Below, piece by piece: positions 7,227 through 17,939 of a stretch of DNA of 64,000 bases. The position numbers and the translations under genes were made by a program. Location: contig JAHPZH010000003.1 of the NCBI GenBank assembly GCA_019058315.1, positions 300,451-364,450 on the forward strand, in the 5' to 3' direction. This DNA comes from Candidatus Helarchaeota archaeon (GTDB taxonomy: Archaea; Asgardarchaeota; Lokiarchaeia; Helarchaeales; RDOG01). Within the stretch, counting starts at the first letter, position 1, and every line of letters starts with the position of its first letter. The notes beneath the pieces were generated by a model, which made no database searches, was not told where the DNA came from, and saw nothing but the letters and a program-made list of their open reading frames with translations.

Positions 7227-8705
7227 TTGACTGAAGAAAGAATCATAACCATTCTCCAGCAAATTGTTGGAGAAGATAGGGCAACTGCTGATGATGCTGA
7301 GATGATCGCATACTCCAGAGACCAGCATTACATGTTTAATAAACCTATGATTCCAAATTACGTAGTAAAACCGATAAATAAAGGTCAAATAAAACAAATT
7401 TTAAGTCTAGCAAATCGCCATAGAATACCAATTGTACCTTTAGCACAAGGAGTTAACATCAGAGGATTGTGCATCCCAACAGAGGGAGGCATAATATTAG
7501 ATATGAGAAATATGAACCAGATAAAAGAAATAAACCTTGAAATGATGACAGCTACAATTGAGCCAGGAGTTTCTGTAGGACAATTAGTAGCGGCATGCAG
7601 AAAATTAGGAGTTAGACCTGCGATTCCAGGGTCCCCCGCAACAGTTAGTGCATTTGCGAATTATATGCTAAGAGGAGTCTATCATTCCAATCCCTTGGAT
7701 GGAATTGATCATGTACTTTGTATGGAGATTATGTTACCTACAGGTGAGACTATAAAAACTGGATCAAGTGCAATTACGACCTCCTATGGACCATATTGTA
7801 GATGGTTTGGACCTGACCTAACTGGTTTATTTCAAGGTGTTCCTGGAGCCTTTGGAATAATAGTTGAAATGACTGTTAAATTATATGATTTTCCAGAAGA
7901 ATCAAGATTTTTGGGTTATGGATTTGATACATGGGAAAAAGCAACTGAATTTGCTATGGAAGTCCAGCGTCGAGTTATCCCCAATTTGATGTGGCTTATT
8001 GATTGGTTAGCTCTCACAGTTGTAAGTGGAATGTTTAAAAGAAAGGACATAATGGAGAAATCCACTAAAGCATCGATGCCCCATTGTACTGTTCCTGTTT
8101 TAATTGAAGGTGAAAAAGACTTAGTTGATTTTAAGTTAAATCGGCTAAAACAAATCCTGGAAAAGGTCCCTCCCGACAGACAACCACTAACGGACATAGA
8201 TACTGCAATTCAACAACCTGAAAGTGGTGGTACAGGTCAAGGAATGAGCTCTGAAGAATTCCTCGGTGGTCGTAATGTCGCAGGAATGTTAAAAATGGGT
8301 TATTATTTTGCGTTAGCTTTTTTTCATCCCCTTAAGACAGGACCAGAGTTATTCAAAATTTTTAAGGATGTCGGTGAGGATAATGGATTTGATAGAGATA
8401 TTGTTTCGTTTGTTTCTACACCAACAGCTACAGGAGCGAACAATTGGTCAGGACAATGTACTTATTCAGAAGGAGAATTATTTGTGGACCAAACAGAACC
8501 AGGTATGATGGATAAATTACGGAAGTTTAGTACACAAAGTATCCAGAAAATCTTAGATGCAAAGTTGATATACTCTTGGTTTAGACCATATGCCCAAGTC
8601 CTTGAAATTACATTAGATAGGGCAGGCGCAACAGGACTTTTCTTAAGAAAGCTTAAAAACTTAATAGATCCGAACAATATCATGAACCCAGGAAAATTTC
8701 TATAG
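7227..8705 (+). CDS. FAD-linked oxidase, GlcD/D-lactate dehydrogenase-like
   Basis: PCMH-type FAD domain (YSRD, P..VVKP, IEPGV, GxxGIIVEMT) and C-terminal DPNNIMNPGK. Confidence 0.88.
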   Translation: MTEERIITILQQIVGEDRATADDAEMIAYSRDQHYMFNKPMIPNYVVKPINKGQIKQILSLANRHRIPIVPLAQGVNIRGLCIPTEGGIILDMRNMNQIKEINLEMMTATIEPGVSVGQLVAACRKLGVRPAIPGSPATVSAFANYMLRGVYHSNPLDGIDHVLCMEIMLPTGETIKTGSSAITTSYGPYCRWFGPDLTGLFQGVPGAFGIIVEMTVKLYDFPEESRFLGYGFDTWEKATEFAMEVQRRVIPNLMWLIDWLALTVVSGMFKRKDIMEKSTKASMPHCTVPVLIEGEKDLVDFKLNRLKQILEKVPPDRQPLTDIDTAIQQPESGGTGQGMSSEEFLGGRNVAGMLKMGYYFALAFFHPLKTGPELFKIFKDVGEDNGFDRDIVSFVSTPTATGANNWSGQCTYSEGELFVDQTEPGMMDKLRKFSTQSIQKILDAKLIYSWFRPYAQVLEITLDRAGATGLFLRKLKNLIDPNNIMNPGKFL

Positions 8706-8715
8706 GAGGAATATT

Positions 8716-9903
8716 ATGTCTCTTGATTTATTAGAAAAATATTCTAAAATTGTTTATTACTGTTCACACTGTCGATTATGCTCTATAGCAAACTACCATC
8801 TTTTAAAAGATTGGGTTCCTATTTGTCCCTCAGGCGAATATTTCAAATTTGAAAGTTATTTCTCCTCGGGAAGAATGGAATTAATACGTGGATTATTAGA
8901 AGGAGAACTCAAACGCACTAAAACTGAAACTATAATGAAAATAGCATTCGGCTGCCAAGTTTGTGGAGGTTGTTATACACAGTGCTCAGATCACACAGCC
9001 TTAGGAGAAACTCAGCAACAGGTGGAAACCTTTGAGGATTTAAGAACTGCACTTGTTGATATGTATGGAGCATTACCTAAACATCAAGAATTAGCTGATG
9101 ATACTACTAAGGACCATAATCCCTATAAGGATAGCAATAATAATCGTTTCAATTGGTTAGAGGGAAAAAATATTCCCGCAGGGTCAAAAACAATCTATTT
9201 TGCAGGTTGCACCGCCTCATTTCGGGAGCAAGAAATTGCTAAAGCTACTGTCAACCTGCTAGAAGCGGTAGGGCAAGATTTTTCTATTCTTGGACCAGAT
9301 GAATGGTGTTGTGGATCTCCACTTCTTAGAACAGGGCAGAGAAAAGTTGCGATGCCTCTCATTGAACATAATTATAATATATTAAAAGAAAGAGGGATTG
9401 AAAGAATAATAACAAGTTGTGCTGGCTGTTATCAGACCATTAAAAACGATTATCCCAAATTTTTAGGTAAGAAATTGGATATTAAAATTGTCCACTCTGT
9501 CCAATTTTTCCAAAATAAAATTAAAAGTGGAGAGTTGAAATTAAAAGGAAAAGATCTTAAAATTACTTATCATGACCCCTGCCATATTGCTAGACATGCA
9601 AACATTAGAAAAGCTCCACGTAAAGTAATAGAAGCCATACCTAATATAAAATTTGAAGAATTTCAACGGAATAAAAAGAATGCTTGGTGTTGCGGAGCAG
9701 GTGGTGGAGTTAAGAAAGCTTTTGGCGATTTTGCAAATTGGACAGCTAATCAACGAATACTAGAAGCGGATAAAATTAAAGATTTACAAGCTATCGTATC
9801 AACATGCCCTTTCTGTAAAAATAATTTAAAACAAGCTGTTGAAAGAATGGGTCGAAAATATAGAGTAATGGACTTAACTGAGTTATTGCAAGAGTGTATA
9901 TAA
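8716..9903 (+). CDS. HdrD/GlcF-like Fe-S protein with two CCG domains
   Basis: CxxCxxC...CP and CxxCxxCxxxC; FAGC...WCCG...SCAGC and HDPCH...WCCGAGGG...TCPFC; 10 bp after the GlcD-like gene with a GGAGG RBS. Confidence 0.88.
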   Translation: MSLDLLEKYSKIVYYCSHCRLCSIANYHLLKDWVPICPSGEYFKFESYFSSGRMELIRGLLEGELKRTKTETIMKIAFGCQVCGGCYTQCSDHTALGETQQQVETFEDLRTALVDMYGALPKHQELADDTTKDHNPYKDSNNNRFNWLEGKNIPAGSKTIYFAGCTASFREQEIAKATVNLLEAVGQDFSILGPDEWCCGSPLLRTGQRKVAMPLIEHNYNILKERGIERIITSCAGCYQTIKNDYPKFLGKKLDIKIVHSVQFFQNKIKSGELKLKGKDLKITYHDPCHIARHANIRKAPRKVIEAIPNIKFEEFQRNKKNAWCCGAGGGVKKAFGDFANWTANQRILEADKIKDLQAIVSTCPFCKNNLKQAVERMGRKYRVMDLTELLQECI

Positions 9904-11311: not shown

Positions 11312-12703
11312 ATGAAGTATAAAGATAAAATTGATTTATACGATGGAAGAAACAATTGCATAGCTTCAGACATTCCATTAGAAGCAATATCACCATTACA
11401 TAATCCATATATTAAAAAAGTGCTTAATTTTGTTAAACGCACTTCTATTATTAATTTGGGAAAGCTTCAGAATGTAATGAAAAAAGGTACAGTCGGTGTT
11501 ATGACGGCAGTTAAACAAGATGAATGTAAAGTTATGAACACATTAGATATACCCATAGTTAAAGATGCTCCAGAGATTGCTGAACGTATTAAGAAACTAA
11601 TTGAGGTCCCAAATTATAATGGGACTCCTGATGATACAGAAGTTTTTCTGTGTGGTAATAATGAAATTATGCTTGTTAAAATGCCAAAAGCTAGGATGGA
11701 TTTAGCTGCTAGTAGAGATGTAGTATATACTTTTCCTGGTCAAGCTCTAGCTCAAGTGCTATCAGAAATGTATGATATTAACCCAGAAACAAATCCAGAC
11801 CATTGTGGTCTTATAAAAACTGCATTGTATGGAAGATATCCCCAAACTGTTCAATTTGCACCAGGAAACGTTATGGGCGCTTTTTTAAACCCCCCACAGA
11901 CTCAAGAGGGGGTTGGAATCGGATATAGGTTAACAACAATAAATAATATTGTAGCATTGACAGATAAAATTACTTTAGACGCAGTAGCGCTATGTTCAAT
12001 TCTAGAACAGGGCTGCCAATTAGAAACTGGTAATGCCGCAGGTTGGTATGAACGTTACTGTTTGCTGGGTATGGCATATCAAGGACTTAACGCAAATAAT
12101 ATTGTTATGGATTTTGTAATAGAGAATAAATCAGGAACAGTTGGAGATGTTATTCGCTCACTTATGGAACGAGCTATTAATGATGGTATTATTAAACAAA
12201 AAGGAGAAAAATATCCAGATATCTTATTCTCGGGTTACAAACTATATTCAACTTCAGATCCTTCATTATGGAATGCATATAATTGCACAGGGTTGTTAGC
12301 TGCATCTATTATTAATGTAGGAGCAAGTCGTGCAGCACAGTGTGTATCCGCAGTATTAGGTGCATATCCCGATTTAATAGCTTTTGAATCAGGAGGTTTG
12401 CCAGATCCCGATTTCGGTCGTATTATGGGAACTGGACTCGGGTTTTGTTTCTATACACATTCAATTTATGGCGGAGCTGGACCTGGAGCTTTTTCTCTTG
12501 ATCACGTATTAGTCCGTCACACCTCTGGGTTCTTCACTCCATGTGTTGCTGCAGCTATGTGCTTGGATGCGGGAACCCAAGTTTTTAGCCCAGAAGTAAC
12601 AAGTGGAAGTATGTTTAAGATTAAAGAGGTAATTGATATCTTTAAAAATCCATTAAATAAAGTCGCCGAGGCGGCGGAGGAGATAAAATCTAAAATAAAG
12701 TAG
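11312..12703 (+). CDS. mcrB: Methyl/alkyl-coenzyme M reductase beta subunit (divergent)
   Basis: KYKDKIDLYD, PLEAISPLHNP, GRYPQ, AYQGLNANN, WNAY, DFGR and HSIYGGAGPG motifs. Confidence 0.96.
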   Translation: MKYKDKIDLYDGRNNCIASDIPLEAISPLHNPYIKKVLNFVKRTSIINLGKLQNVMKKGTVGVMTAVKQDECKVMNTLDIPIVKDAPEIAERIKKLIEVPNYNGTPDDTEVFLCGNNEIMLVKMPKARMDLAASRDVVYTFPGQALAQVLSEMYDINPETNPDHCGLIKTALYGRYPQTVQFAPGNVMGAFLNPPQTQEGVGIGYRLTTINNIVALTDKITLDAVALCSILEQGCQLETGNAAGWYERYCLLGMAYQGLNANNIVMDFVIENKSGTVGDVIRSLMERAINDGIIKQKGEKYPDILFSGYKLYSTSDPSLWNAYNCTGLLAASIINVGASRAAQCVSAVLGAYPDLIAFESGGLPDPDFGRIMGTGLGFCFYTHSIYGGAGPGAFSLDHVLVRHTSGFFTPCVAAAMCLDAGTQVFSPEVTSGSMFKIKEVIDIFKNPLNKVAEAAEEIKSKIK

Positions 12704-12704
12704 G

Positions 12705-13514
12705 GTGATTATTATTCCTGAAGAAAAACCAAAAGATAAAATAAAGTATCAGAGACAATTTTATCCTGGAACGGAAAAAGTATCTGAACGCAGAAGAAAA
12801 ATCATGGATCCTAATCGTAGATTAGTTAAATTGCGTGATATTCCAGATGACGATATTATCCTTTTACTTGGACATAGAGCTCCAGGGGCTTTATATGCTA
12901 GTGTTCACCCTCCATTGGATGAGATTTTAGAACACGAAGACCCAATTAAGTCAATAGTAGAACCAACTCCTGGTGCAAGGGCTGGTGATCGAATGCGGTT
13001 TGTTCAATTTACAGATTCTTTCTGGAGACCTCCATTTGCACCTTGGTTGCGAGCTAGAACATATTTCACTCGGTTTAGGGGGCTGGATACAGTTATTTAT
13101 TCAGGGCGACAACTTTTAGAAATGCGTGAAAGAGACTTAGAAGCTACCACCAAACTCCTTATAGAAACAGAAGTTTTCGATCCCGCTCGGACTGCACTTC
13201 GAGGAATCACAGTTCATGGACATGCATTACGTTTAGACTCCGATGGATTGATGTTTGACGCACGGAGGAGATATATTTATGATAAAGACATAGACGAAGT
13301 TGTTTATCATAAAAATATGAATGCCGAAGTTCTAGATATCCCTGTACCTGTCGGTAGACCTATGTCAGATGAGGAACTACAAGAATATGACGTTACATAC
13401 CGTTGGGATACTACAGCATATAAAAGCCGAACAGAATTGCTCATGATAGTCACGCGAATAACAAGAATGCGCATCTTGGGTGGTTTTAAACCAGATTTAG
13501 TTGCAAATATGTAA
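12705..13514 (+). CDS. mcrG: Methyl/alkyl-coenzyme M reductase gamma subunit
   Basis: QFYPG, LGHRAPG, SVHPPLDE, GDRMRFVQFTDS, SGRQ..E.RERD and VHGHALRL..DGLMFD motifs; 1 bp after mcrB. Confidence 0.96.
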   Translation: MIIIPEEKPKDKIKYQRQFYPGTEKVSERRRKIMDPNRRLVKLRDIPDDDIILLLGHRAPGALYASVHPPLDEILEHEDPIKSIVEPTPGARAGDRMRFVQFTDSFWRPPFAPWLRARTYFTRFRGLDTVIYSGRQLLEMRERDLEATTKLLIETEVFDPARTALRGITVHGHALRLDSDGLMFDARRRYIYDKDIDEVVYHKNMNAEVLDIPVPVGRPMSDEELQEYDVTYRWDTTAYKSRTELLMIVTRITRMRILGGFKPDLVANM

Positions 13515-13551
13515 AATTTTTTTTCCTATTTTTTTAATGATTTTAAAAAGC

Positions 13552-15957
13552 CTACTGAATTTCTTTTCGTTGTTTAGTGCTAGGAAATCCCTTTCGAAGC
13601 CATCCTATCATCCCACCGATTAGGTTTCGAACATCTTTAAAACCCGCTTGAGCTAATAGTCGAGCTGCCATCATCGATCTCATTCCAGAATGACATATTG
13701 TTACGATTTCTTTATCCTTAAATTCATTAAATTCTTCAATTTTATTCATTAATTCGCCCAGTGGAATTAATTTAGAACTTTTAATATGCCCTTCTGGACC
13801 GTAATATTCCTCTGGAGATCTTACATCTATAAGAAGGTCTGGCTTATCATCTGTTTCAAGACGTTCAAATAATTCATTTGGTTCTATATCTGATAAAGCT
13901 GGGGAATCAGGTCTTCTTAATTCTTTTCTAGAAATTTTGGGTAGTTTAACTGGTGCAATAACATCATCTTTCGAAATTTTACCTTTTTGTAATATTGCTA
14001 CTATTTTTCCCATACTTTTTTCGAGATTTAATAGTTTAATATTATCTGTTAATTTAACATATGCTTCTACACTTGATTTAAAACCTGGATCTGTTGCGAA
14101 AATTTTTAATTTCTTTTCACTTTCCTCAGGAAGTGTTTCAAGACCTTTTATTAGAGCATTCAATGGACCAGGACAGCTCAAACCACTAGCATCAATTTCA
14201 ATAAATTCATTACTTTCTTGAGATTTATCTTTGATAAATTCCTCCATAATTTCTTGAGGACTACCACATGCATTTATGATTTCCTCAGTTGTTGCCCTCG
14301 CCATTTCAAAAAGTCTAAATCCACCAGTTAAATTATAAACTTCTTTAAAGCCATTTAGTAATAACATTCTCGATGCCAAATAACTTCTAAAACCAGTTTC
14401 GCAAAACACATAGATTGGTTTATTCCTAGGAATTTCATCTAATCTTTTTCGTAATTCATCTACATGGATATTAATAGCGGCTTCTATAGGTCTTGTCTTA
14501 AATTCTGCTGGTGTTCTAACATCTAGAATAAAACCACCATTTTCTTTAATTTTTTCATAATCATGATAATGCCAAATTGGCATATCACCTTTAATAAAAT
14601 TTGAAGCTATAAAGCCAGCCATATTTATAGGATCCTTAGCCGAACTATAGGGTGGAGCATAAGATAATTCTAATTCTTCCAGATCGAAAACTGTTCCTCC
14701 CATTTTTATTATCGTTGAAATTATATCTATCCTTTTTTCAGCTCCAGAACCGCCAACAATTTGAGCACCTAAAATTTTTCCAGAAGACTTATTGAAGATT
14801 AATTTGAATGCTAATGGAACTGCACCTGGATAATAACCTGCATGATTATTAGGATGAAGAAATATTTTTTCATATTCATTTCCATTATTTTTTAATGTTT
14901 TTTCAGTTAAACCTACAAAAGCAGCAGTAAGATCGAAGATTTTAACAACAGAAGCACCTAATGCCCCATTATATTCTGAATCTCGACCAGCAATATTATT
15001 TGCAGCAATTCTTCCTTGCTTATTAGCAGGTCCTGCTAATGGAACCAGAGTAGGCTCATTTGTTTGAAGATTTAAAATTTGTACAGCATCTCCAACAGCA
15101 TAAATATGAGGATCTGACGTTTGCATTTGTTTATTGACTATTATATGTCCTCTAGGACTCATTTTGAGGTTTGAATCTTTAAGAAAAGCAGTTTCAGGTT
15201 TTATACCAATTGACATAATAATTAAATCAGTTTCGATTATTCTACCACTTCTAGTTTTAACATAAGGTCTATTTTTTTCAGTTCGTCCAAAAGAATCAAC
15301 CCCATCTTCTAATACCAAGCAAATTCCATTTAAAATTAATTCTTGATGGATAAATTGACACATTTCTTTGTCCATAGGAGGCATAACTTGGTCTAACATT
15401 TCAACTATTTTTACTTTCACTCCCATTTGACGTAAGTTCTCCGCAATCTCTAGACCAATAAATCCTCCTCCTATAACAACTACGTGTTCTGGTTTTTTAT
15501 TATCTACATAATTCCTAATAGCCACTGCATCAGGAATTGTTTTTAAGGTGAAAATCGGAACATCATCAATTCCGGGTAAATTTGGTCTTATTGCTCTAGC
15601 CCCTGGTGATAAAATAAGATAATCGTAGGATAGATCATACTCAGATTTATTTTTTAGATCTTTAATTTTAACTTGTTTATTATTTTGGTCTACTGAAATA
15701 GCTTCATGATTAATACGGACGTCAATATTATATCTATTGAGAAATCTTGAAATTGGTACTAATTCTAATGCCTTACGATCTTTGATATCACCACCTATAT
15801 AATAAGGCAGACCACAATTTGCAAATGATACATATGATCCTTTTTCAATCATTATTATATCAAAATCTTCATTAAGTCGGCGCAATCTAGCAGCAGCAGA
15901 TGCTCCACCTGCCACACCACCTATAATTACCACTTTTACCATTTTATCATTCCACAA
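13552..15957 (-). CDS. CoA-disulfide/persulfide reductase fused to rhodanese, TusA-like and a second rhodanese domain
   Basis: GGVAGG, SFANCGLPYY (redox Cys), GGGFIGLE, AVGDA and YAPPYS; rhodanese FCETGFRS; TusA-like DASGLSCPGP; rhodanese ICHSGMRS. Likely true start is the ATG at 15942. Confidence 0.9.
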   Translation of the reverse strand: MWNDKMVKVVIIGGVAGGASAAARLRRLNEDFDIIMIEKGSYVSFANCGLPYYIGGDIKDRKALELVPISRFLNRYNIDVRINHEAISVDQNNKQVKIKDLKNKSEYDLSYDYLILSPGARAIRPNLPGIDDVPIFTLKTIPDAVAIRNYVDNKKPEHVVVIGGGFIGLEIAENLRQMGVKVKIVEMLDQVMPPMDKEMCQFIHQELILNGICLVLEDGVDSFGRTEKNRPYVKTRSGRIIETDLIIMSIGIKPETAFLKDSNLKMSPRGHIIVNKQMQTSDPHIYAVGDAVQILNLQTNEPTLVPLAGPANKQGRIAANNIAGRDSEYNGALGASVVKIFDLTAAFVGLTEKTLKNNGNEYEKIFLHPNNHAGYYPGAVPLAFKLIFNKSSGKILGAQIVGGSGAEKRIDIISTIIKMGGTVFDLEELELSYAPPYSSAKDPINMAGFIASNFIKGDMPIWHYHDYEKIKENGGFILDVRTPAEFKTRPIEAAINIHVDELRKRLDEIPRNKPIYVFCETGFRSYLASRMLLLNGFKEVYNLTGGFRLFEMARATTEEIINACGSPQEIMEEFIKDKSQESNEFIEIDASGLSCPGPLNALIKGLETLPEESEKKLKIFATDPGFKSSVEAYVKLTDNIKLLNLEKSMGKIVAILQKGKISKDDVIAPVKLPKISRKELRRPDSPALSDIEPNELFERLETDDKPDLLIDVRSPEEYYGPEGHIKSSKLIPLGELMNKIEEFNEFKDKEIVTICHSGMRSMMAARLLAQAGFKDVRNLIGGMIGWLRKGFPSTKQRKEIQ

Positions 15958-16118
15958 TTTAGGAAATAAGAATAATATTTTCTAATAAGTAAAGATTTTA
16001 TATATATAATTCTTCTAATGAAGGAATTAAAAAAAATAGAATGCTCTTAATGTATTTAAAATGTATTTAAATTATGATTTTAAACAGAATTATAAATTCA
16101 AAAAAAATAAAAAAAGTT

Positions 16119-17939
16119 TTAGTGTGCTGGAACTATTAAATCACGTTCTCCAGCAGGTTTGAATTGTCTCAAGCATGCTTTTGCTAATGAAACTCGCGGA
16201 TTCTTAAAATCAAAGATTAAATCACGATCTGCGAATGCTACTTTTATAACTGGACTTACTGCATATGCTCTACCTCTACCTTGAGCCGCGGCCATCACAG
16301 CAGCAATTTGACCAGCTGAATGTCCCGCGGTATATGATCGAACCGGAAAATTCGGACCAGCAAATTCAAGAAGCCCACCTTCATCCATTCGGAAAGAACA
16401 TGAATATGGAAGTCCTACATGATCTTGAACTTCTTGTCCTGCCCAACCAGTTCTTACCCAACCCTCTTTCATCAACATTCCAATTGCATAATTCTGACCC
16501 TGAACACCAATTATTGGTGACCCTGTCATCATTGCAACTCCAGCTCCACCCAAAGCACCTATTACGGAAATTCGGTGAGCTCCACCCCAATGGAACTCCA
16601 TAAGAGATGGATATTTCTCATATTGTTCCATAGCTGCTTGAATCAACATGTCTATCATGAATTTCACTCTTTCCCATTTTGGAGGGATCCTAGGAATCTT
16701 AAACATAGAACGATTTTGTACCTCTGTAAATGATTCAAGCAAATCTTCCATAACATTACCGCAATATGCCCCTGCTGCCACAGCAGTTGAGAAACCTAAT
16801 CCACCAGACATATAAAATCCGTAATTCAACAATTCGGTCATAACAGCAGCTATAATGCCTAAACCCTTTGACATTTCGCGTTGTCTAGTTTTTGCATCAT
16901 CTAAATCTTCTTGTACCACTTCCCAATAAGCTCTAGCAGGCAACATCGCATCCGCTTGTTGGATATCTGCTAAAAAACCGTATGAGATTCCAGTGGGTTC
17001 ATTTTGTCCACGAGCTCTACTGAACCAAGTACGTTCACCCATATTTATAAGGCATGCAGATTTAGCAGCATATGCAATATCAGATATGATACTTTCACCT
17101 GTGAGCCTATAAGAGGATATAAATGACATCGAAGATTGCATGGCTGCCCATCTATAAACAACAGCACCATCAGCCATACGAACTGCAATTGTAGGTATAC
17201 GGACAGCTATGTATATTGTATCCCCAATATCACGTTTTAACATCTCAGCTTTAGTTGGATGAAACTCTTGATCAATATTAATGACAAATCTTCTATCTAT
17301 ATTGTCCACGAAATCGTCATTGCCAGTAATAACCTTAGCATGTGCATCATAGGTTAATCCAGGGTGAATTTCAGCCATATGTTCTTGAGCCACCGCACCT
17401 CCAGCTACTGTGTGTTGTAATGTTTCCAGATAAAGATTTACTGTTTCAGGTGTGATTTCCTTACCTGCTCTTACTTGTAAAACTCGATGTGGGATATCTA
17501 AATTCAAAATAACTGTACGTTTAATATCGTCAAGTAATTGCTGAATTGCAGCATTATTAACATGATGTAAATCGTCATAATCTACTATCACATCAGTCCC
17601 GCTTATAATATATGGCTCTAAAGCCCTCTGTCCTAGTGGAATACCGACTGCTCTGTTGTAAGCAGGTATTCCTCTTTCCTTTGCTATTTTCTTTCCCCAT
17701 TCGGAAAATTCTTTCTTACGCCCACTTTGACGAATTCCACCACGATGATACATTAGAGGGTCCATAGTTGATAATGGATGGATTCCATAAATTTTTTCCA
17801 TAGTTTTATAGATTAAACGGTCTTCCTCATTAGGAAGGAACTTCTGTGCCAACTTAGATAAATTATATTTATATTCTGTCTCTTTTGCAATCCTTTTTTT
17901 TCCAAATGCAAGATCTTTTCTTTTGGCCAAAAAAATCAC
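16119..17939 (-). CDS. mcrA: Methyl/alkyl-coenzyme M reductase alpha subunit (divergent, ACR-type)
   Basis: RQSGRK, PLGQR, DDLHHVNNAAIQQ, GGAVAQEHM, RWAAMQ, RARGQNEP, YMSGGLGF, HWGGAHR, GWAGQEVQDH, KVAFAD and PAGERD motifs. The start may be the TTG at 17930. Confidence 0.96.
   Translation of the reverse strand: MIFLAKRKDLAFGKKRIAKETEYKYNLSKLAQKFLPNEEDRLIYKTMEKIYGIHPLSTMDPLMYHRGGIRQSGRKKEFSEWGKKIAKERGIPAYNRAVGIPLGQRALEPYIISGTDVIVDYDDLHHVNNAAIQQLLDDIKRTVILNLDIPHRVLQVRAGKEITPETVNLYLETLQHTVAGGAVAQEHMAEIHPGLTYDAHAKVITGNDDFVDNIDRRFVINIDQEFHPTKAEMLKRDIGDTIYIAVRIPTIAVRMADGAVVYRWAAMQSSMSFISSYRLTGESIISDIAYAAKSACLINMGERTWFSRARGQNEPTGISYGFLADIQQADAMLPARAYWEVVQEDLDDAKTRQREMSKGLGIIAAVMTELLNYGFYMSGGLGFSTAVAAGAYCGNVMEDLLESFTEVQNRSMFKIPRIPPKWERVKFMIDMLIQAAMEQYEKYPSLMEFHWGGAHRISVIGALGGAGVAMMTGSPIIGVQGQNYAIGMLMKEGWVRTGWAGQEVQDHVGLPYSCSFRMDEGGLLEFAGPNFPVRSYTAGHSAGQIAAVMAAAQGRGRAYAVSPVIKVAFADRDLIFDFKNPRVSLAKACLRQFKPAGERDLIVPAH

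Follow-up and report, generated by a model that had tools for sequence, protein, structure and literature searches.

Alkyl-coenzyme M (CoM) reductases (ACRs) initiate the anaerobic oxidation of non-methane alkanes, and we know of no enzyme from the Bathyarchaeia/Helarchaeales/Methanoliparia group that has been purified or structurally solved. A 64,000-nt stretch of a Candidatus Helarchaeota genome (assembly GCA_019058315.1, contig JAHPZH010000003.1, positions 300,451–364,450; hereafter the window) carries a gene of this family, acrA, whose predicted product has serine at two positions that contact coenzyme B (CoB) in canonical methyl-CoM reductase (MCR). Does such an enzyme still work with CoB, or has its channel been rebuilt for something else? 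The original prediction, made without database searches, read the two changes as a remodeled channel mouth, possibly for a different thiol partner or a wider substrate entry. Our comparisons make it fairly probable that the acrA product is the alpha subunit of a working Helarchaeales-type ACR in which Ser257 and Ser270 belong to a selected, lineage-typical CoB channel mouth, with canonical CoB as the likelier partner.

Residue numbers throughout are those of M. marburgensis McrA. The minus strand at 17019–17060 translates to SACLINMGERTWFS, inside the 606-aa acrA open reading frame (ORF). HMMER alignments to the M. kandleri chain 1e6v_A and to MCR II chains run without a gap from AAKSA to SRARG, placing one serine opposite His257 and the other opposite Arg270. 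Columns of our census, a MAFFT alignment of 133 full-length McrA/AcrA sequences, concur: the acrA product has Arg225, Lys256, Ser257, Arg266, Trp268, Phe269, Ser270 and Arg271. Both alignments bear out the original observation of two serines, the second directly preceded by Trp-Phe, with Arg225, Lys256 and Arg271 kept. The contact role it ascribed to His257 and Arg270 agrees with the published anchors of the CoB threonine phosphate, which are alpha-Arg270, alpha′-Arg225, alpha′-Lys256, alpha′-His257 and beta-His379, with Lys256 the strongest in an in silico alanine scan (PMC12842094). Besides His257, the N1-methyl-His site, and Arg270, canonical methane-type MCRs have Tyr333, Phe443-Tyr444 and Asn481 where this protein has Val, Trp-Ala and Thr. 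Hallmarks of ethyl-CoM reductase (ECR), namely ECR-type insertions and retained Lys-His and Arg-Arg pairs, are missing from it as well.

The ORF matches 18 solved MCR/ECR alpha chains in the PDB (HMMER), with 1e6v_A the best (E 2.5e-147) and ECR 7b1s among the weakest (E 1.7e-109). Its closest database relative is 90% identical (JGI), followed at 73–61% by sequences deposited under the names Ca. Helarchaeota or Ca. Hodarchaeota McrA. Identity is 55–56% to Bathyarchaeota BA1/BA2, ~50% to Syntropharchaeia and Ca. Alkanophaga and ~45% to methanogens. In a quick maximum-likelihood tree of 73 rows, the product falls among the ACRs (59-row clade, SH-aLRT 100) and outside the methanogenic and methanotrophic MCRs. 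This tree does not settle how the three Ser257 groups, P0013 and a divergent Asgard clade branch relative to one another, and we therefore make no claim that Ser257 arose only once. ACR signature residues are present (Trp268, non-Arg270, Trp396, Gln446/Glu447 and Thr/Ser481), and the alignment shows that Gln147, the axial ligand of F430, and Gly445 are retained. A one-residue deletion in loop 239–246 completes the signature; it has been described for ACRs and tied to an open cleft in models of long-chain enzymes (Lemaire & Wagner, PMC9118554). By these comparisons, the predicted product is a Helarchaeales-type ACR, an enzyme kind already published (PMC6478937). That Helarchaeales enzymes would form alkyl-CoM from alkanes we infer solely from relatives (PMC10811742, PMC6478937). 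We counted three copies of acrA and three full acrA/B/G sets in the source genome (5.8 Mb, 12 contigs, 94% complete). ACRs occur in all seven genomes of the source order, as opposed to 0 of 154 other genomes of the same GTDB class.

Original expectations had joined the two losses into one special change, and the alignment across McrA and AcrA separates them. Arg225, Lys256, His257, Pro268, Arg270 and Arg271 are found in 61 of 61 canonical MCRs. Trp268 and a residue other than Arg at position 270 (Ser, Ala, Gln, Asn or Gly) are present in every one of the 59 rows that make up the multi-carbon ACR clade, always with Arg271 kept. ACRs of Ca. Methanoliparum thermophilum and Ca. Methanolliviera fall in the P0033 and P0031 clusters (Ala270 and Ser270), and Ser270 is present in Ca. 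Alkanophaga (P0040) and Syntropharchaeia (P0035/P0037). Alkyl-CoM formation has been reported for Ca. Alkanophaga and Ca. Syntrophoarchaeum, and hexadecyl-CoM is the product described for the long-chain ACR of Ca. Cerberiarchaeum, a related enzyme (PMC10811742). Judged by the census, loss of Arg270 is an ACR hallmark and nothing special to the window's gene.

Position 257 has a narrower distribution. His257 is retained by the ACRs of Bathyarchaeota, Methanoliparia, Syntropharchaeia and Alkanophaga. Ser257 is limited to 21 census sequences, which form three paralogue groups; the three acrA copies of the source genome each belong to a different group, and the residue occurs also in the sister genomes G001 and G003. 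One relative of the Ser257 sequences, P0013, has His257. Within this sampling, the His257-to-Ser change is specific to a Helarchaeales subclade and not to this gene, while Arg270 loss and P268W are ACR-wide. Divergence of the coenzyme site in Helarchaeota ACRs is itself already published, a 2022 review having pointed to "drastic substitutions" there; we found no text naming His257-to-Ser.

Codon usage and conservation in the Ser257 clade indicate how these residues are maintained. Most members encode Ser257 with TCT, TCG or TCC, and the C5 paralogue does so with AGT; the codons are AGT/AGC and TCN for Ser270 and CGN and AGA for Arg266. The motifs AAKSA and GERTW are invariant in all 21 members. 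Across the 31-residue segment, 19 positions are invariant, compared with 37% of positions in the whole protein, and the mean top-residue frequency is 0.90 in the segment versus 0.78 overall. Because both serine codon families encode it, we regard Ser257 as being under selection; these data indicate that Ser257, Ser270 and Arg266 are maintained by purifying selection rather than drifting. The idea of a remodeled channel mouth gains from this result, as conservation is higher in the segment than in the rest of the protein and its residues persist through codon-family switches. Its extension to a different thiol partner fares worse, given the other contacts that are retained.

Those contacts extend over all three subunits. 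The alpha subunit keeps Arg225, Lys256, Arg271, Met324, Ser325 and Phe330 of the CoB site; L320Y, F443W and V482A are conservative changes, and M480Y and N481T are common to other ACRs. AcrB retains Phe361, Ser365, Ile366, Tyr367, Gly368, Gly369, His379 and Val380, with F362Y and V381L as its changes. Gamma-Arg120, the CoM sulfonate anchor, is kept within a YSGR motif that recurs in all three gamma subunits of the genome. Three of the five phosphate anchors are retained, together with Arg271. A scan of alpha for clade-specific charge changes identified Arg266 as one local gain (Lys in Bathyarchaeota and Methanoliparia). The possibility that a basic residue such as the Arg of GERTW compensates for the losses fits the invariance and selection of Arg266 but sits less well with its pairing with Glu265. 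An AF2 single-chain model of the acrA product (pLDDT 83, pTM 0.87) places Ser257 at the end of helix 282–294. As a separate observation, acrB of the C3 set (G000:C3:195535-196929) has Asn in place of beta-His379, that is, a third CoB phosphate anchor is lost there; the window and C5 sets have His.

A two-layered remodeling probably accounts for this pattern. The older layer, which is ACR-wide and accompanies the switch from methane to larger alkanes, would comprise Pro268 to Trp, the replacement of Arg270 by something small or polar, and the loss of one residue from loop 239–246. The later, Asgard-specific layer would add His257 to Ser plus a fixed Glu265-Arg266. The threonine phosphate would then be held by the retained Lys256, Arg225, Arg271 and beta-His379, perhaps with some contacts taken over by the hydroxyl of Ser257 and by the gained Arg266.

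Whether the organism handles CoB can be addressed through its heterodisulfide reductase (Hdr). One source-genome HdrB reached 426 bits with the equivalog model for subunit B of CoB-CoM heterodisulfide reductase, whose cut-off is 345 bits. Only the two methanogens among 14 control genomes passed this cut-off, as did five of the seven genomes of the source order. Aligned to the solved M. thermolithotrophicus HdrB (CoB/CoM site of 5ODR), the passing protein keeps Arg14, Arg201, Gly46 and Gly198, of which Arg14 contacts the CoB phosphate and Arg201 the carboxylate (PMC13261682). We rejected Arg240 as a discriminator: it is Val in the source HdrB, but also in the solved HdrB of an H2:CoB-CoM heterodisulfide reductase (8rvu_b). 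Altogether, the very large HdrB/CCG family of the genome yielded 58 matches to the model, ~12 of them full-length HdrB-like genes and one above the cut-off. Five LeuA/AksA-family and two HacA-family paralogues could elongate 2-oxoacids. The second HacA-family match, a homoaconitase/isopropylmalate (IPM) dehydratase large subunit (L018, G000:C6:232462-233748; 525 bits), contains three in-frame stops (TGA, TAG and TAA), pointing perhaps to a pseudogene or to an assembly error.

Searches for two further genes bear on CoM and on modification of the active site. ComA (phosphosulfolactate synthase) was not found in the 94% complete genome, and since the control M. acetivorans also lacks it, this absence is uninformative on CoM. 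Mmp10, the Arg271 methyltransferase, was likewise not found (best match 31 bits versus a cut-off of 350); Arg271 of the acrA product is therefore probably unmethylated. N1-methyl-His257 is among three modifications strictly conserved in methanogen MCRs (2022 review, PMC9081873); with Ser at position 257, this clade cannot carry it.

Several results weigh against CoB as the partner. Of the five positive phosphate anchors, two are missing, and the new Glu265 accompanies Arg266, so that the local net charge stays below that of MCR; beyond Arg266, the charge-change scan found no clade-specific basic gain in alpha. In the AF2 model, where loop 301–310 reaches a pLDDT of only 69, Arg266 and Ser270 are part of a loop or short turn, which leaves no basis for arguing from residues that share one face of a helix. 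The sole ACR-type structure with CoB bound, ECR 7b1s, retains both His257 and Arg-Arg (residues taken from its alignment). The substitutions thus did not turn up in an ACR shown to use CoB, and CoB use by Ser/Ala270 ACRs from alkyl-CoM-forming cultures is assumed. Because Hdr also takes CoB analogues whose head groups differ (PMC13261682), the HdrB equivalog is no proof of canonical CoB. Checking for the CoB biosynthesis genes aksADEF returned generic LeuA/HacA/LeuB-family matches, none above the AksF_Meth or HacA_Meth cut-offs, with models that are narrow and later CoB steps that have no models. The best source-genome candidates remained below the methanogen equivalogs (286 versus 500 bits for AksF_Meth, 494 versus 550 bits for HacA_Meth), and AksF_Meth, a lineage-narrow model that one of the two control methanogens itself fails, was passed in none of the seven genomes of the order. 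Taken together, the balance of the sequence evidence favors canonical CoB as the partner, without proof.

Of the other readings, the best surviving, though still doubtful, leaves the thiol partner unchanged and has the substitutions reshape or widen the shared entrance for bulky alkanes or alkyl-CoM, or adjust the alpha/alpha′ interface, unrelated to CoB affinity. Throughout the ACR clade, P268W and the loss of Arg270 follow the switch from methane to multi-carbon substrates, and they co-occur with the loop 239–246 deletion proposed to open the cleft for long alkanes (PMC9118554), and the hexadecyl-CoM-forming Ca. Cerberiarchaeum enzyme (PMC10811742) is a related long-chain ACR. However, Trp268-Phe269 is bulkier than Pro-Ala and offers no obvious widening, and His257-to-Ser is independent of substrate class, as the long-chain Methanoliparum ACRs have His.

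It is improbable that the Helarchaeales enzyme uses a CoB variant with another head group or chain, or another thiol, with the Ser257/Ser270 mouth as an adaptation to that partner. In favor of this reading, the phosphate site has lost two of its five anchors and has a lower local charge, Ser257 is selected rather than drifting, and sister Asgard ACRs lose Arg225, Lys256 or Arg271 as well. Lemaire & Wagner raised 'a variation of these molecules' for these sequences (PMC9118554), Hdr tolerates head-group variants (PMC13261682), methanogen-type AksF/HacA equivalogs are passed in 0 of 7 genomes of the order, and ComA was not found. Against this stand the retained Lys256, Arg225, Arg271 and beta-His379 and the conserved heptanoyl tunnel (alpha Phe330, Met324 and Ser325; beta Phe361, Tyr367, Gly368 and Gly369). 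HdrB keeps Arg14 and Arg201 for phosphate and carboxylate, the Aks models are lineage-narrow (AksF_Meth in one of two control methanogens) and the LeuA/AksA- and HacA-family paralogues could supply 2-oxoacid elongation.

A fusion of CoA-disulfide/persulfide reductase (CoADR), rhodanese, TusA and rhodanese domains between acrG and acrA might hint at another thiol and was considered as a conserved alternative thiol-recycling partner. We rejected it: the gene is single-copy in the source genome, adjoins just one of its three acr sets and is missing from 73%-identical orthologous plain acrBGA operons, the same arrangement being found only in the 90% relative. Its adjacency looks like the outcome of a recent inversion that carried acrA and its downstream neighbor, not a conserved functional pairing. 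A switch to a new thiol partner is without positive support from the sequence comparisons. If the partner did differ, the HdrABC-based recycling assumed in models of Asgard alkane oxidation would need revision; the evidence is not in favor. Less likely again is that Helarchaeales ACRs use a head-group CoB variant or a different thiol and not canonical CoB, with the selected His257-to-Ser change as the visible adaptation. The change removes a modification site strictly conserved in methanogen MCRs, in an order where methanogen-type Aks equivalogs do not pass their cut-offs either.

Within 11312–17939, acrB and acrG on the plus strand converge on acrA on the minus strand, which looks like a simple inversion of acrA plus its downstream gene out of an ancestral acrBGA operon. 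Of the other two sets in the source genome, C3 forms a plain BGA operon; in C5, A comes first and BG follows after 2.2 kb. Very hard to credit is a decaying or non-catalytic acrA paralogue whose lost contacts reflect relaxed constraint: there are three copies in one genome, this one is inverted away from acrBG and many active-site positions are unlike MCR, but the ORF is intact with complete acrB and acrG alongside, 21 sequences of 61–90% identity all have these residues in spite of codon-family switching, Gln147, Gly445, gamma-Arg120 and beta-Tyr367 are kept, and the remodeled positions are common to ACRs of cultured alkane oxidizers.

Table 1. Positions of the acr genes, key codons and neighboring features in the window.
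Feature	Position	Strand	Basis or remark
acrA (mcrA-like), ACR alpha subunit, 606 aa	16119-17939	(-)	Pfam MCR_alpha_N 2e-101 and MCR_alpha 1e-18
acrB, beta subunit	11312-12703	(+)	Pfam MCR_beta 9e-91; aligned to 5a8w_B
acrG, gamma subunit	12705-13514	(+)	Pfam MCR_gamma 8.5e-96
CoADR-rhodanese-TusA-rhodanese fusion, 801 aa	13552-15957	(-)	between acrG and acrA
Flagged segment Ser257-Ser270	17019-17060	(-)	alignment, codon read-out
Arg225 codon, retained CoB phosphate anchor	17151-17153	(-)	alignment
Lys256 codon, retained CoB phosphate anchor	17061-17063	(-)	alignment
Ser257 codon	17058-17060	(-)	alignment
Glu265 codon	17034-17036	(-)	alignment
Arg266 codon	17031-17033	(-)	alignment
Trp268 codon	17025-17027	(-)	alignment
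Ser270 codon	17019-17021	(-)	alignment
Arg271 codon, retained; 5-methyl-Arg site in canonical MCR	17016-17018	(-)	alignment
beta-Tyr367 codon	12467-12469	(+)	
beta-His379 codon	12503-12505	(+)	
gamma-Arg120 codon	13107-13109	(+)	
FAD-linked oxidase and CCG-domain protein	7227-9903	(+)	
Restriction-modification methylase, 682 aa	24228-26276	(-)	

Two other features of the window (Table 1) lie outside the acr genes. An FAD-linked oxidase (FAD_binding_4) and, immediately after it, a 395-aa HdrD/GlcF-like protein carrying two CCG domains form a pair located 1.4 kb upstream of acrB. Further along, an Eco57I/MmeI-type restriction-modification methylase carries a TaqI-like specificity domain.

The results sharpen what a structure or cofactor analysis of these ACRs should look for in two ways: N1-methyl-His257 is impossible in the whole selected Asgard ACR clade, though strictly conserved in methanogen MCRs (PMC9081873), and the loss of Arg270 is an ACR-wide signature instead of a local oddity. 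They also provide sequence markers for sorting metagenomic mcrA-like genes, with P268W plus R270X denoting an ACR and H257S the Helarchaeales type.

Set against known systems, the acrA product is ~45% identical to canonical MCR (M. marburgensis 1hbm/5a0y, M. kandleri 1e6v). Gln147, Arg225, Lys256, Arg271, Met324, Ser325, Phe330 and Gly445 are common to both, and canonical beta-Tyr367, beta-His379 and gamma-Arg120 are kept in the window's acrB and acrG. Differences comprise H257S, P268W, R270S, the loss of Tyr333, F396W, Q400H, F443W, Y444A, C452V, M480Y, N481T and V482A, as well as a ~17-aa insertion before YMSGG. The only ACR-type structure, the Ca. Ethanoperedens thermophilum ECR with CoB and CoM bound (PDB 7b1s), belongs to the same family and fold class. 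Unlike acrA, it has Lys-His at 256/257, Pro-Tyr-Arg-Arg at 268–271, a Met axial ligand and large insertions. Because it keeps His and Arg-Arg, 7b1s is uninformative on CoB binding by a Ser257/Ser270 enzyme.

Within the source order, a second, divergent Asgard ACR clade (P0046-P0058; genomes G001, G002 and G004-G006) shares Trp268 and Ser270 with acrA but has lost far more: Lys, Gln, Tyr or Ala stands at 257, Lys at 225 and Arg or Gln at 256, often with Leu or Phe at 271 or a Leu axial position. This type is absent from the source genome. Among its members, L034-L037 and L042 combine Lys225, Gln/Arg256 and Gln/Tyr/Lys257, several with Leu at the axial F430 position, and in the G006 protein an 8-residue deletion takes out positions 267–274.

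The long-chain ACRs of Ca. Methanoliparum and Ca. Methanolliviera (VUT24756.1, RZN64248.1) and the ACRs of Bathyarchaeota BA1/BA2 fall in the same ACR subclade as acrA at 51–57% identity. They share Trp268, non-Arg270, a basic residue at 266, Trp396, His400, Trp443, Ala444 and Thr/Ser481 with acrA, but combine His257 with Lys266 where acrA has Ser257 with Arg266. Closest of all are the published Ca. Helarchaeota ACR alpha subunits (Seitz et al. 2019, PMC6478937), 61–90% identical over their full length and, like acrA, characterized by AAKSA, GERTW, [SA]RAR, the axial Gln and Gly445. Their 73% orthologue is encoded in a plain acrBGA operon, whereas here acrA is inverted with the CoADR fusion in between, as only in the 90% relative.

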